From the sequence record MT740315.1: a stretch of 39,195 nucleotides of DNA; one strand, given 5' to 3'. The position numbers and the translations under genes are program-made. Below the pieces are notes generated by a model, which made no database searches, was not told where the DNA came from, and was given only the letters and a program-made list of their open reading frames with translations. Each line of letters begins with the position of its first letter. The first letter of the stretch is position 1. The stretch is from Escherichia phage JEP4. Shown here piece by piece: positions 24,015-37,237 of this stretch.

Positions 24015-24466
24015 TGGTTGCCTCCTTTGCGAAGCTCAGCGGCGAAGGCTACTGCGTGATCATGATGTTCAAGTGTGTATGCACACTCCGCAAACATCTC
24101 CACCCCCTGCGCCCGTACTTCAGCCAGAAAAGCATCGGTGGCTGGGGTTTTGATTTCGTTAAGCGCATCACTGAATCCACCACGCTCCATACCTAGCTCT
24201 GCTTCGTAATCGGCATCGAATGCAGCGTCTTTGCAGAACTTCTTCATCCCCGCACTCTCCGCTGCCAGCGCCGCGCACTTGGCCTCAAGGTTATCAATCG
24301 TGATTCCAGCAGAACGACACTCCCGCAACGCCGTTTCTAGTTTTGATTCAAGTTCACCGAACTTACGGACAAGATATTCAGCGTTTGTTTCGTTAACCTT
24401 TAAATCACTTGGGATGCATTTACCTTTCAGAAATCCATCCATCTCAATTAGTGTCATTTGTTTCAT
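24011..24466 (-). CDS. Hypothetical protein (about 151 aa)
   Basis: ORF with ATGA-type overlap to upstream gene if started at [12 protein letters not shown]. Confidence 0.45.
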
Positions 24467-24645
24467 TTCTTCCCACTCCGCCACATCGCATTCAGATATT
24501 TGTTTTGATTCACTGATGGAAAAGAATTTCTCTTAAGCAATTCCTCTCTCGATGGCATTGGCTTTACGCGTTGGCGAATAATCATTTCTGCTGGAAGAAT
24601 GCCGGGATTGTATGCAAGTCCTCTCATGGTAAATTCCTCAGTCAT
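24463..24645 (-). CDS. Hypothetical small protein (about 60 aa)
   Basis: Short ORF filling the gap between neighbours in the same operon; weak support. Confidence 0.3.
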
Positions 24646-24934
24646 TACTGATAGCGCCATAGCGTGATCGGTAATTACGCAGGCGCGGGTCGATATATTC
24701 AGGGAATTTGTCTATTGTCGCTTTTCGCAACGGTCTCATTGCTGTTTCGTTTGTTCGGTCCTTCTCCTGTTTTAGCGCGAGTTGTATATCGCGTCGGTAC
24801 ATCCGTTCTGCTTTTGTTTCTGGTGTCAGAGCAAGAAACGCGTCGAAATTGTTTTTGATATTTTCCAGCACCTCCGCCTTGGAGCTACCGGAGCAATTGC
24901 GCGGGTCATCCGCACCATACAGAGGCGCTGGCAT
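24638..24934 (-). CDS. Hypothetical protein (98 aa), downstream of recombination genes
   Basis: [36 protein letters not shown]...; sits where anti-RecBCD (abc) genes follow the recombinase in P22; function not established. Confidence 0.5.
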
Positions 24935-24957
24935 AATGGGAGCCTTATTTTCAATAA

Positions 24958-25545
24958 TCAGAAAGGAGGGTAATCGTTCTGGCTGTAACCATAATCATCT
25001 GCATGATTCTGGCTTACGTTTTTAGAGCGATTGTCTTTATCTTTGAGGCTGGCAACCATGTTGGCGATAGTTTCTGGTTGCTTGCCTTCCGCCTTTTCTT
25101 TAAGGGTTTGACCTGTTTGTGCAATAAACGGGATGCGTATTTCCATCTGGTAGCTGTCTGCGCCAGTCTTTTTGTTTGTGGTTAATACTTTCTGGAGCAC
25201 TAACCCGATTTTCTTTCCATGAAACTCAGGAGCAACAAATTTACTGGCGGAAACCATATGTTGCGTTAATTGTCCAATCCCGGCACACCCCATCATGGCG
25301 TGAACGACATTTGCGCCAAATTTGTTTTCCGTTCCGTCATTTTTCTGAACACAGACGCTAAGATATTGGATTTTACGTCCGTCGTCAGATTCGCCAGAAA
25401 ACTCAATAAATTTGGCTCCTTTTTCTGATTGCTTTAGTTCTGCTTCAGTAATGGTAATGATATGAGCACCAGTTTCGTTAATAAAACCACCTTGCCCTGC
25501 GGTCAGTGCTGCTTCTTCGTTATAAGTAAAAATCACGTTGCTCAT
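24958..25545 (-). CDS. Putative single-strand DNA-binding protein (atypical)
   Basis: 195 aa; C-terminal acidic/aromatic tail DDYGYSQNDYPPF resembling the SSB DDDIPF tail; adjacent to Sak4-like ATPase. Confidence 0.45.
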   Translation of the reverse strand: MSNVIFTYNEEAALTAGQGGFINETGAHIITITEAELKQSEKGAKFIEFSGESDDGRKIQYLSVCVQKNDGTENKFGANVVHAMMGCAGIGQLTQHMVSASKFVAPEFHGKKIGLVLQKVLTTNKKTGADSYQMEIRIPFIAQTGQTLKEKAEGKQPETIANMVASLKDKDNRSKNVSQNHADDYGYSQNDYPPF

Positions 25546-26222
25546 GCGGCGTTTTCCTTAATTTGATGAACATTATTGATGCCGTAGTAATCACAAACAG
25601 TGGCATCGACGAAAGAGAGATCGTTATCAATCTCATTAGAATCAAACATTCCCATTGGGGATTTAACAGTGTCTGCACCGTTGTTTTTCGTGGTGAAAAA
25701 GAACTGGTCATCGCGGGTAAGGGTGCGAAGAACTATAGTAAACATGCCTTCGACAGTGATTTTCTCGTCCAGCATTTTGCCGATAGTCTTCATTTTCACA
25801 CGCCCCATAGGGGTTTCTTCGGTGTGCGCAAGAAAATAGACTCTCAGGTCATCAGGTGCATCCTGTGCAGCCTTAATCACCTCCCATGCGTGGCGGCCTA
25901 TCTCAGTGAATTTATCAAACGATTTTTCTTCTGAGCGGCGCATAAACTCATTGCTCATCACATACTGGAAGTCATCAACAATAACGATTCTTTTCCCGTA
26001 TTCGTGAGCACGCTTAATTACGGCAACTATTACGTCCCATTTGTCAGTGGTAACTACGGTTCCTTTTTTTGCTCTGGCATCCCATGCCAGCCAGTCTTTT
26101 GATTTAAATGGAAGCGGCTTGCCTATTGGTTTTATAAGTATTGCTTCCTCTGGATTGATATTTCTCATGCTGGTTGATTTTCCGGTGCCAGATTCACCGA
26201 GTATTAATGTCGCAGTTCCCAT
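25542..26222 (-). CDS. Sak4-like RecA-fold ATPase (recombination)
   Basis: Walker A GESGTGKST near N-terminus, Walker B IVIVDDF; about 226 aa, size and location typical of phage Sak4. Confidence 0.7.
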   Translation of the reverse strand: MGTATLILGESGTGKSTSMRNINPEEAILIKPIGKPLPFKSKDWLAWDARAKKGTVVTTDKWDVIVAVIKRAHEYGKRIVIVDDFQYVMSNEFMRRSEEKSFDKFTEIGRHAWEVIKAAQDAPDDLRVYFLAHTEETPMGRVKMKTIGKMLDEKITVEGMFTIVLRTLTRDDQFFFTTKNNGADTVKSPMGMFDSNEIDNDLSFVDATVCDYYGINNVHQIKENAA

Positions 26223-26230
26223 AATTTGCC

Positions 26231-26419
26231 TCAGAATGGTAATTCGGATGGGGAGGAAAGAAACTCACGCTCATTCATGCGCTCTCTTTGTGCCTGCCAT
26301 AAGCAAAGTTGTTTCTTTGATTTATCTCCCGCTTTACGCCAGTAACGAGCCTCAGCAATGTGATATTCTCTTTTTAATCGACTTAATTCTGGAGTTTTCG
26401 CCAGTTCTACCGGAATCAT
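26231..26419 (-). CDS. Hypothetical protein (about 62 aa)
   Basis: Start MIPVELAKT preceded by GGAGG SD embedded in kil 3-prime end. Confidence 0.4.
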   Translation of the reverse strand: MIPVELAKTPELSRLKREYHIAEARYWRKAGDKSKKQLCLWQAQRERMNEREFLSSPSELPF

Positions 26420-26529
26420 TTTGACCTCCATTTTCTGTAGGCTTCGATGGCCTCACGAAACATCTTTTCATCGCCAATAAAAGTGGCGATAGTGAATTTA
26501 GTCTGGATAGCCATAAGTGTTTTATCCAT
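26416..26529 (-). CDS. kil: Kil-like host cell-division inhibitor (37 aa)
   Basis: MDKTLMAIQTKFTIATFIGDEKMFREAIEAYRKW matches recalled lambda Kil N-terminus; start overlaps cIII stop. Confidence 0.6.
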   Translation of the reverse strand: MDKTLMAIQTKFTIATFIGDEKMFREAIEAYRKWRSK

Positions 26530-26662
26530 TTTTGGGAACTCCTGGCTGATTAAGTACGTCGATGAGTCGTTTCCATCCGTCACGTAATTTACGGGTGATT
26601 CGTTCAAGTAAAGATTCGGAAGGGCAGCCAGCAACAGGCCACCCTGCAATGGCATATTGCAT
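26522..26662 (-). CDS. cIII: CIII-like protease inhibitor (46 aa)
   Basis: MQYAIAGWPVAGCPSESLLERITRKLRDGWKRLIDVLNQPGVPKNG matches lambda CIII; ORF-track 26722 start is an extension. Confidence 0.75.
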   Translation of the reverse strand: MQYAIAGWPVAGCPSESLLERITRKLRDGWKRLIDVLNQPGVPKNG

Positions 26663-26722
26663 GGTGTGCTCCTTATTTATACATAACGAAAACGCCTCGA
26701 GTGAAGCGTTATTGGTATGCAT

Positions 26723-26748
26723 ATAAAAAAGCCCTCACATCGGAGGGC
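26723..26748 (-). terminator. Rho-independent terminator in leftward operon (tL-like), upstream of cIII
   Basis: On minus strand GCCCTC-cgatgt-GAGGGC followed by TTTTTTATAT. Confidence 0.6.
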
Positions 26749-26884
26749 AAAGAAGATTTCCAATAATCAGAACAAGTCGGCTCCTGTTTAGTTACGAGCG
26801 ACATTGCTCCGTGTATTCACTCGTTGGAATGAATGCACAGTGCAGTGTTTATTCTGTTGTTTATGCTAAAAATAAAGGCCACCA

Positions 26885-27136
26885 TCAGGCAGCCTTGTTG
26901 TAAATGTTGCAGGTATCAAGTAAGTAATTAGATGGAGCGCCATAAATTATGAATTCATCGTTTGTCGGGTCCATCTCCATCTCTTGGCCTATTGCCATTC
27001 TTGCGTCAGTGTCGTCAGCGGCGAAGCATAAAACAGCCCACGCACCCATTGTTTTAAAAAGAACTGCAATTGGCTGTGGTTTTACTGAATTTGCGTTAGC
27101 GCGAAAATCACAAATCGCACTTTCATGAAACTCCAT
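26885..27136 (-). CDS. Hypothetical protein (83 aa)
   Basis: ORF in the ral/ea10 position of the PL operon; C-terminal NKAA weakly recalls Ral but is not sufficient. Confidence 0.45.
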   Translation of the reverse strand: MEFHESAICDFRANANSVKPQPIAVLFKTMGAWAVLCFAADDTDARMAIGQEMEMDPTNDEFIIYGAPSNYLLDTCNIYNKAA

Positions 27137-27198
27137 ATCTCACCTCAAATAAGTGGTTTGCTGCCAAAACAATGAACCATCCGGAAATTCCAGATAGT

Positions 27199-27426
27199 TC
27201 ATAATTCACTCTTCAATACTTCCAACTTACTAATCGCCGATAGATATCCGCGCTGATAGGGCATCATCATTCCTTCGAGCTTGCCACTTCTTAACTCCTT
27301 CCTGAGCAATTGTATTGCTTGATCAATAACCTCTGCCTTAGCGTCCTTTATGGCTTGCTTGCGGGGCTTTGCTTTCTGCTTTGGCAGATTTCTCAAGCAT
27401 GATGGAATGTATGTCTGATTCATCAC
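27199..27426 (-). CDS. Hypothetical basic protein (75 aa)
   Basis: ORF immediately downstream of the N-like gene. Confidence 0.45.
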   Translation of the reverse strand: MMNQTYIPSCLRNLPKQKAKPRKQAIKDAKAEVIDQAIQLLRKELRSGKLEGMMMPYQRGYLSAISKLEVLKSEL

Positions 27427-27699
27427 TTACCTCGCTGTCAGTTGTTTTGATTTCCGGTAGCCTGCCGCGTAAATGGCTACGTTTGGCAGGCAAATACTTC
27501 CACTGCATTCATCTGCCTTCTTGCAGCGAAGGCTTCCGAGTGATGCTGCTTTATCTGCCCTGACGCAACCAGAGAGCTTTAGCGCAATTTTTCGTGCCAA
27601 TCGCTGTTCTTGCATTGCCTGTTCACGTTGAGCCTGTCTGCGTGCTCTGCGGCGATTTCTGGCGTTATCGTCAGCCAGATATGTAATGACTACTGTCAT
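27427..27699 (-). CDS. N-like transcription antiterminator with arginine-rich motif
   Basis: N-terminal ARM NARNRRRARRQAQREQ; GGAGG SD; first gene leftward of PL; nut sites with matching boxB on both arms. Confidence 0.6.
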   Translation of the reverse strand: MTVVITYLADDNARNRRRARRQAQREQAMQEQRLARKIALKLSGCVRADKAASLGSLRCKKADECSGSICLPNVAIYAAGYRKSKQLTAR

Positions 27700-27893: not shown

Positions 27894-27922
27894 AATTTAA
27901 GATCTCTTTAATTAATGGTCAA
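27894..27922 (-). promoter_or_regulatory. PL promoter with overlapping c2-type operator
   Basis: Minus strand TTGACC, 16-17 nt, TTAAAT/TAAATT; palindromic operator-like ATTTAAGATCTCTTTAAT overlapping. Confidence 0.4.
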
Positions 27923-28013: not shown

Positions 28014-28664
28014 TTATGGAAGGTTTGCTAGTTTTGCATCGACAACTACGCCGATGATTTTGCAGTTTCCGTTGATCTCGATCATCGGATATTGTGGGTT
28101 AAGTGGTTTTAGAAACTTCCTGCCTGCATCAATAACTAACTTCTTGAAAGTTGCCTCGTTTTCTCCTTCTAGCTTTGCAACTACCAGTTTCCCGTTACGC
28201 GGCTCTACTTCAGGATCGACGAGTATTATCATTCCTTCAGGGATACTGAGACCGGCCGGAGCCGTCATTGAGTCTCCCTTCACGTCCAACCAAAACGAAT
28301 CTTCTGAACAGTCTACGGTTGTATCGTACCAGTTATCTATTGCACGCTTATGATATGGTTCTACAGCTTCCATCCAGCATCCTGCGCTCACCCAGCTAAT
28401 CAGAGGGTATGACCCTCTTGGATCATGCCTACTGTGATAGGCAATGTTTGAAAGACTTTCCTCTCCTTTCATCAGATAGTCAGGGGAACACTTCAACGCA
28501 TTAGCCAGGGCGAGAAGATTCTCTCCATTTGGCTCTGTCTCAGAGCGTTCCCACTGAGATATGGCAACATTAGACACGCCGACCATCTTTCCAAGTGCGG
28601 CCTGCCTGATCTTGAGTTCTTTTCTCCGAGCGCGAATGCGCTCTCCCATCAATTGAGTTTTCAT
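28014..28664 (-). CDS. c2: Prophage repressor, P22 C2-type (HTH plus S24 peptidase)
   Basis: MKTQLMGERIRARRKELKIRQAALGKMVGVSNVAISQWERSETEPNGENLLAL matches P22 c2 as recalled; intact catalytic GDSM and FKK; Ala-Gly in linker. Confidence 0.95.
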   Translation of the reverse strand: MKTQLMGERIRARRKELKIRQAALGKMVGVSNVAISQWERSETEPNGENLLALANALKCSPDYLMKGEESLSNIAYHSRHDPRGSYPLISWVSAGCWMEAVEPYHKRAIDNWYDTTVDCSEDSFWLDVKGDSMTAPAGLSIPEGMIILVDPEVEPRNGKLVVAKLEGENEATFKKLVIDAGRKFLKPLNPQYPMIEINGNCKIIGVVVDAKLANLP

Positions 28665-36777: not shown

Positions 36778-37237
36778 TCAACGTAAGGCGTTCCTCGATA
36801 TGCTGGCGTGGTCAGAGGGAACTGATAACGGACATCAGAAAACCAGAAATCATGGTTATGACGTCATTGTTGGCGGAGAGCTATTTACTGATTACTCCGA
36901 TCACCCTCGCAAGCTTGTCACGCTAAACCTCAAACTCAAATCAACAGCAGCCGGTCGCTACCAGCTTCTTTCACGCTGGTGGGATGCCTACCGCAAGCAA
37001 CTTGGCCTGAAAGATTTTTCTCCAGAAAGCCAGGATGCTGTAGCGCTGCAGCAGATTAAAGAGCGTGGCGCTTTACCGATGATTGACCGCGGTGATATTC
37101 GTCAGGCAATTGACCGTTGCAGCAATATCTGGGCTTCACTGCCGGGCGCTGGTTATGGTCAGTTCGAGCATAAGGCTGACAGCCTGATTGCAAAATTCAA
37201 AGAAGCAGGCGGAACGGTCAGAGAGATTGAGGTATGA
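36761..37237 (+). CDS. R: Endolysin, lambda R-type lytic transglycosylase
   Basis: [24 protein letters not shown]...; matches lambda R as recalled. Confidence 0.95.

Follow-up and report, generated by a model that had tools for sequence, protein, structure and literature searches.

Three consecutive open reading frames (ORFs) on the minus strand span positions 24638–26222 of the 39,195-nucleotide sequence of Escherichia phage JEP4 (MT740315.1), the whole of which we call the window. They encode proteins of 226, 195, and 98 amino acids (aa). In the direction of transcription they are sak4 (25542–26222), whose product is a core-only RecA-fold ATPase and putative single-strand annealing protein corresponding to HkaL/Sak4 of phage HK620; ssb (24958–25545), for a non-canonical single-strand DNA-binding protein (SSB; DUF669-type, 'SSB-2') with an NDYPPF tip, corresponding to HkaK of HK620; and abc2 (24638–24934), for an anti-RecBCD protein 2 of the allele type found in phage ST104. 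An initial annotation of the region had listed these ORFs with Walker motifs in the first product and an acidic, SSB-like tail in the second, and all of these were present as described. The stop codon of sak4 and the start codon of ssb share an ATGA overlap, which suggests that the two genes are translationally coupled, and a Shine-Dalgarno-like site, TAAGG, precedes abc2. A fourth minus-strand gene, hkaM (26231–26419), lies ahead of sak4 as the first gene of the module and encodes a protein of 62 aa, predicted to form a helical hairpin, with a tail ending in ELPF. The region also has antisense ORFs on its plus strand. We did not accept these as genes, given the overwhelming family support for the ORFs of the minus strand and the absence of any RNA family match there. 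No tRNA gene turned up in a scan.

The module is flanked by conserved genes that run in the same direction. Downstream, on the minus strand at 24463–24627, lies a DUF2737 gene (Pfam DUF2737, E=2.6e-31), the equivalent of hkaI in HK620 and orf56 in P22. Upstream are kil (26416–26529, minus; Pfam Lambda_Kil) and cIII (26522–26662, minus), both 100% identical to their HK620 counterparts, and the lambda cIII thermoregulator RNA was recognized at 26617–26675 (Rfam Lambda_thermo, 88.5 bits). The PL operon begins with the gene for the N antiterminator, at 27427–27699 on the minus strand (Pfam N_peptide, E=1.1e-15), a promoter-like site was predicted on the same strand at 27922–27894, and a C2/LexA-type repressor gene at 28014–28664 has a divergent cro beside it. 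These features bear out the placement of the genes in a PL operon, as had been proposed. A terminase-like ORF opens the JEP4 sequence, which has a full P22-like set of structural, integration, immunity, and replication genes, with structural genes about 95% identical to those of the P22-like coliphages CUS-3, Sf101, and Kapi1. Judged by this gene content, the sequence reads as a complete P22-like genome.

The 226-aa protein matched the PHROG family phrog_2872, 'Sak4-like ssDNA annealing protein', over residues 1–220 (E=3.9e-108), and the Pfam family AAA_24 with 30.2 bits, the gathering score being 27. Its Walker A motif, GESGTGKST, occupies residues 9–17 and its Walker B motif, IVIVDDF, residues 79–85, and at only 226 aa the protein is without the C-terminal domain of RecA. 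A sequence search of the PDB gave no match to it. Alignment with HkaL/Sak4 of HK620 showed 225 of 226 residues to be identical (99.6%), and in JEP4 the cognate ssb gene adjoins sak4. The HK620 protein has been purified and shown to bind ssDNA and to anneal complementary strands in an ATP-dependent manner (Hutinet et al. 2018, PMC5928155). By its near-identity to this characterized protein, the JEP4 ATPase is a Sak4, in agreement with the initial annotation.

The 195-aa protein matched phrog_743, 'single strand DNA binding protein' (E=1.8e-66), and is identical to HkaK of HK620 at 194 of 195 residues (99.5%). [quoted passage not shown] 2018, PMC5928155), and this stimulation requires its last six residues, NDYPPF (PMC5928155). 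The C-terminal end of the JEP4 protein, residues 183–195, is DDYGYSQNDYPPF, and its last residues, SQNDYPPF, include the same six residues that are needed in the HK620 SSB. Among 42 homologues, drawn from a search of 5.8 billion proteins, the terminal phenylalanine is present in at least 90% and the consensus end is PF. The SSB-like protein with an acidic tail in the initial annotation thus has a near-identical relative in which the tail is known to work.

The family relationship of this SSB was visible in fold comparison. The HMM searches proposed with the initial annotation gave the AAA_24 match and the PHROG Sak4 and SSB matches, but a Pfam scan of the 195-aa protein, even at E≤10, returned neither the SSB model (PF00436) nor the DUF669 model nor any other. 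Close relatives are named 'DUF669 domain-containing protein' by NCBI, a label that is therefore not reproducible with the Pfam model. A profile made from the 42 sequences likewise had no match among PDB chains at E≤10. In an AlphaFold2 model with a mean pLDDT of 82, the core forms a beta-barrel and residues 177–195 make up a disordered tail. Foldseek comparison of this model with models of viral proteins retrieved DUF669 proteins and proteins named as SSBs (E 5.7e-14 to 4.8e-9), the latter from Roseobacter phage RD-1410W1-01 and Vibrio phage phi50-12. Sequence identity between the JEP4 SSB and the proteins found by fold, PrgE of plasmid pCF10 (PDB 8S4S) and the DUF669-type and phage-annotated SSBs, is only 12–24%. 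HkaK has been described as remotely related to the SSBs of phages N4, Lc-Nu, and PhiAT3 (Hutinet et al., PMC5928155), and a 2025 survey names this type 'SSB-2' and does not regard it as a homologue of bacterial SSB (PMC12315714). By prediction, then, the JEP4 protein has an OB-type core; the reading as an SSB presupposes such a fold and is left standing by the predicted barrel. By homology to HkaK it works as an SSB that lies, at the sequence level, outside the canonical PF00436 family.

The 98-aa protein aligned along its whole length with the Pfam family PF11043 (Anti-RecBCD_p2; residues 1–98 on profile positions 1–97, 121.7 bits with a cutoff of 25, E=1.5e-35) and with the chain of P22 Abc2 in PDB entry 8B1T (8b1t_A; residues 1–98 on 1–97, E=3.7e-32). 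It also matched the PHROG abc2 family, phrog_656 (E=5.1e-45), and in RefSeq it bears the name 'phage anti-RecBCD protein'. The matches identify the 98-aa protein as a full-length Abc2. P22 Abc2 binds RecC, and cryo-EM structures of it on RecBCD have been determined (8B1T and 8B1U; PMC9836394).

The JEP4 Abc2 is 87% identical to Abc2 of ST104, 62% to that of P22, and 61% to that of HK620, and copies 100% identical to it occur in phage TL-2011a and many Stx2a phages. The JEP4 and HK620 DNA sequences are 96–100% identical over about 24294–26854, apart from a patch inside abc2, at about 24694–24900, in which only 25 to 36 of every 50 nucleotides are the same. This patch spans the helices by which P22 Abc2 binds RecC in its cryo-EM structure. 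We placed the list of RecC contacts (Figure 4 source data of PMC9836394) on an alignment of the alleles. The contact positions A3, C14, S15, G16, L36, E39, K41, and R47 are kept, C14-S15-G16 being the stretch of backbone contacts; K44R and H48R are conservative changes; and R13N and Y30F lose two mapped side-chain contacts with RecC. R67-P68 is conserved, and P68 is the residue that engages host PpiB and is thought to sit in the PpiB active site (PMC9836394).

These data bear on how the 98-aa protein should be understood. The initial annotation had noted that the gene sits where anti-RecBCD genes are found in relatives, and had suggested that its product could be an anti-nuclease or anti-defence factor not yet characterised. 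The position in an early-left operon does suit such genes, and when eight proteins of the module and its flanks were compared with NCBIfam there was no meaningful match, so that no NCBIfam model covers the 98-aa protein. However, since Pfam, PHROG, the 8B1T chain, and RefSeq all give Abc2 or anti-RecBCD, and the protein is 87% identical to ST104 Abc2, it is neither unknown nor uncharacterised as a family. The annotation was right that the factor is anti-RecBCD in kind, but it is a known one, and we give next to no credence to a new type of factor, a reading that homology has already refuted. A less extreme idea is that the ST104-type protein is a true Abc2 that acts unlike P22 Abc2, in its RecC contacts, its strength, or its escape from a host sensor, and that the central divergence reflects selection on the RecBCD interface and not neutral mosaicism. 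The patch does lie within the gene and over the RecC-binding helices, between nearly identical flanks, and two mapped contacts are removed. Moreover, both allele classes are present in phages of both E. coli and Salmonella, and host species alone is therefore no explanation. Nonetheless, changes at most of the contact positions are conservative or absent, Pro68 is kept, and the swapping of ancient alleles at conserved flanks is normal lambdoid mosaicism, which makes this idea unlikely. We take the JEP4 Abc2 to be a functional protein of a second, old allele class, one that would have been brought in by ordinary lambdoid mosaic exchange.

It could also be supposed that the whole module is a decaying, non-functional relic in a defective prophage, and in some E. 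coli genomes of the O26 type related copies of the module are indeed interrupted by IS600. In JEP4, however, all four ORFs are intact, they have start and ribosome-binding signals, and they are near-identical to functional genes of HK620; the terminase-like ORF at the start of the sequence and the full P22-like gene set argue in the same direction. Intact genes throughout and an apparently complete phage genome led us to reject the defective-prophage reading as highly improbable.

The fourth module protein, HkaM, stands apart from the three with assigned functions. The JEP4 protein is identical to HkaM of HK620 at 61 of 62 residues (98.4%) and matches phrog_1723. It is small and basic, and an AF2 model shows helices at residues 10–30 and 33–49 followed by a low-confidence tail. 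In E. coli SSB, the C-terminal tip is DDDIPF. The C-terminal Pro-Phe of HkaM resembles both this tip and the NDYPPF of the HK620 SSB. The full-length homologues from a first search all have [L/I/M]-P-F as their C-terminus, with preceding residues that vary and carry indels. When 1.84 billion cluster representatives were searched exhaustively with a profile, 11 of 14 representatives, each from a different 50%-identity cluster, ended in FLG-x(1-3)-PF-COOH; the three without this end look frameshifted or fused. Tips in the family include ELPF, EPPF, DLPF, EMPF, ETPF, and PAPF. Genes like hkaM lie directly upstream of an annealase gene in modules of several kinds: those with Sak4, those that pair Erf with an SSB, and those that pair a longer AAA_24 protein with a PF00436 SSB. 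Arf of P22, which is encoded at the same position as HkaM, ends in FAGYYS and has no motif in common with it.

HkaM has been described as an orphan that is dispensable for recombineering (Hutinet et al., PMC5928155), and a literature search on HkaM and on SSB-tip mimics in phages found nothing relevant beyond that 2018 study. As a tentative suggestion from the conserved ends, HkaM may have a tail that imitates the C-terminal tip of SSB in function and docks into pockets of the phage annealase or of the host SSB interactome, either recruiting these proteins or competing with host SSB for them. The Pro-Phe motif gives a modest but testable clue to the way in which accessory proteins join networks of SSB-tip interactions.

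Taken together, these data make it very probable that JEP4, a P22-like (Lederbergvirus-type) coliphage, has here a homologous-recombination (Rec) module of the HK620 type, hkaM-sak4-ssb-abc2, which is transcribed leftward from PL under N antitermination and acts as an Abc2/SSB/Sak4 pathway. The mechanism that we propose is drawn from characterized proteins that are near-identical or homologous to those of JEP4. Abc2 would bind RecC and block the response to Chi and the loading of RecA while leaving the helicase and nuclease activities of RecBCD largely intact. Binding to RecC has been shown for P22 Abc2 (PMC9836394), and RecBCD binding and loss of the Chi response have been shown for P22 Abc2 only; by analogy, we infer RecC binding and a block of the Chi response for the JEP4 allele. 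Host RecBCD would then resect phage DNA ends for the phage pathway rather than destroy them. The non-canonical OB-fold SSB would coat the resulting 3' single strand and expose its NDYPPF tip, and the tip would recruit Sak4, as shown for the HK620 proteins, each of which differs from its JEP4 counterpart by one residue (PMC5928155). Sak4, as a RecA-core-only ATPase, would use ATP to anneal complementary strands covered with SSB, which has likewise been shown for HK620. Because co-expression of abc2 did not raise oligo recombineering by Sak4 (Hutinet et al., PMC5928155), the hand-off from Abc2 to Sak4 on double-strand ends is a step that we infer.

By analogy with erf of P22, this annealing probably serves circularization of the genome and recombination-dependent formation of concatemers and replication without RecA, in a phage that packages terminally redundant DNA by the headful mechanism. 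Among lambdoid phages with headful packaging, a Rec module is nearly universal (PMC12315714). The JEP4 module encodes an anti-RecBCD protein, an SSB, and a single-strand annealing protein and lacks a nuclease. This gene content fits functional class C, of which HK75 is the prototype, an assignment made here on the scheme in Table 1 of PMC12315714 and not by that paper. Across both strands of JEP4 the only Chi site is on the plus strand, a count in keeping with class C and with what is expected of a phage that makes an anti-RecBCD protein (PMC12315714, Table 1).

The module is widespread. Searches with its 2.3-kb region recovered it, at a coverage of at least 80%, from 63 phage records, including HK629 and Stx1a and Stx2a phages, and from 180 of the 5,426 complete genomes of E. 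coli; 2,363 E. coli genomes matched some part of the query. HK629 is about 95% identical to JEP4 over the shared sequence and has a gene for an HNH endonuclease inserted just downstream of abc2, and the Sak4 of APC_JM3.2 is identical to that of JEP4. The Sak4-SSB pair, Abc2, and their arrangement are already known, having been described for HK620 between 2001 and 2018. The structure of Abc2 on RecBCD followed in 2022 (PMC9836394), and the Rec modules of lambdoid phages were surveyed across 325 phages in 2025 (PMC12315714). The finding itself changes very little, and the module is common in E. coli genomes and many Stx phages. Its practical value lies in correct annotation, in that JEP4 can be recorded as a phage that relies on hijacked RecBCD and an ATP-dependent annealase and has no exonuclease of its own. 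In addition, the Abc2 that it carries is of the less-studied ST104 type.

The closest known system is the Rec module of HK620, hkaM-hkaL/sak4-hkaK/ssb-hkaJ/abc2, and the window is syntenic here with HK620, HK629, and P22. The HK620 module is reportedly treated in Clark 2001 and Lopes 2010. HK620 and JEP4 have the same gene order, the same flanks and overlaps, and the same NDYPPF tail; all 54 residues of HkaI are identical in the DUF2737 protein of JEP4, and 88 of 90 residues are identical between the N proteins. HK620 differs in its abc2 allele, which is only 61% identical, the central segment in JEP4 being ST104-type sequence, and in the genes between N and cIII, which are unlike those in JEP4.

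In P22 the corresponding order is c3-kil-arf-erf-abc1-abc2-orf56, whereas in HK620 and JEP4 it is cIII-kil-hkaM-sak4-ssb-abc2-hkaI. Both kinds of module are placed between kil and the DUF2737/orf56 gene, share a homologous, full-length Abc2, and rely on hijacked RecBCD with no phage exonuclease. P22 differs in having the Rad52-fold Erf with Arf and Abc1, and JEP4 in having the RecA-fold Sak4 with HkaM and an SSB; the P22 genes and their HK620-type replacements have no sequence relationship (PMC5928155). The initial annotation had described the JEP4 genes as standing in place of erf/abc of P22. This applies to arf-erf-abc1, but abc2, kil, and the DUF2737/orf56 gene were kept, as the comparison with P22 and HK620 indicates. 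Relative to P22, then, the alignment of gene orders indicates that only arf-erf-abc1 is swapped for hkaM-sak4-ssb, a replacement for which mosaic exchange, bounded by the conserved flanks kil and abc2, would account.

The likeness to the Red system of lambda (gam-bet-exo) is one of plan. Both are PL-operon cassettes that join a RecBCD antagonist to a single-strand annealing protein. The antagonists differ, in that Gam is a DNA mimic that blocks the DNA-binding site of RecBCD, whereas Abc2 is a modifier that binds RecC. Lambda also has its own exonuclease and no SSB, and its annealing protein, Beta, is Rad52-like and independent of ATP, in contrast to the ATP-dependent, RecA-fold Sak4 of the HK620-type module.

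The first gene of the Rec module (window 26231-26419, minus strand) encodes the 62-aa protein HkaM, and HkaM-like genes are also present in three loci with related Rec modules, L006 (3001-3183), L007 (3001-3183) and L010 (2333-2515). Proteins of this family, about 60 aa long, share a conserved C-terminus, ...FLG-x(1-3)-Pro-Phe, with variants including ELPF, DLPF and EPPF. In amino acid sequence this C-terminus resembles the tip of SSB (DDDIPF; NDYPPF in the HK620 SSB), and the Pro-Phe end is predicted to sit on a flexible tail. The PF00436-type phage SSBs encoded in L006 (4284-4808) and L010 (3400-3903) lack the canonical IPF tip, ending in ...HAIHSI and ...HSIHAI, but in both loci the adjoining HkaM-like protein does terminate in LPF. 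The L007 SSB has a normal tip (...DDTDIPF). The gene directly downstream of the hkaM-like gene is always the annealase gene, regardless of whether the annealase is Sak4, a longer AAA_24 protein or Erf. In PHROG the HkaM family bears the label 'recombinase', for which there is no evident basis.

The abc2 gene at the other end of the module (24638-24934, minus strand) shows intragenic mosaicism. A divergent patch at approximately 24694-24900, the central two-thirds of the gene, which encodes the RecC-binding helices, has only 25 to 36 of 50 nucleotides identical to HK620 in each 50-nt stretch, whereas identity to HK620 is 96-100% at both ends of abc2 and in the genes next to it. The central segment is a different, old allele, of the ST104 type. 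Two of the residues with which P22 Abc2 contacts RecC, R13 and Y30, are N and F in the window protein. The only Chi octamer (GCTGGTGG) in the 39-kb window lies at 36975 on the plus strand; the minus strand has none. This agrees with the report that Chi is scarce in those lambdoid phages that encode an anti-RecBCD protein (PMC12315714).

A 65-aa DUF2737 ORF from the mechanical ORF list (24463-24660, minus strand), which starts inside abc2, was rejected as an over-extension because the conserved protein begins at an internal ATG at 24627; this protein is identical to HK620 HkaI at 54 of 54 residues. On the other flank, Rfam RF01804, the lambda cIII thermoregulator, was matched at 26617-26675 on the minus strand (88.5 bits); this RNA element overlaps the cIII start and is the only Rfam family with a match in the window.

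Between N and cIII (26854-27427, minus strand) the window has no similarity to HK620. In HK620 the interval holds hkaQ and hkaP, the latter a putative superinfection-exclusion gene; in the window it contains two small minus-strand ORFs, one of 83 aa at 26885-27136 and one of 75 aa at 27199-27426, assigned to phrog_2471 and phrog_5305, each with a terminator-like hairpin on its 3' side. The slot is a plausible site for host-takeover or anti-defence genes.
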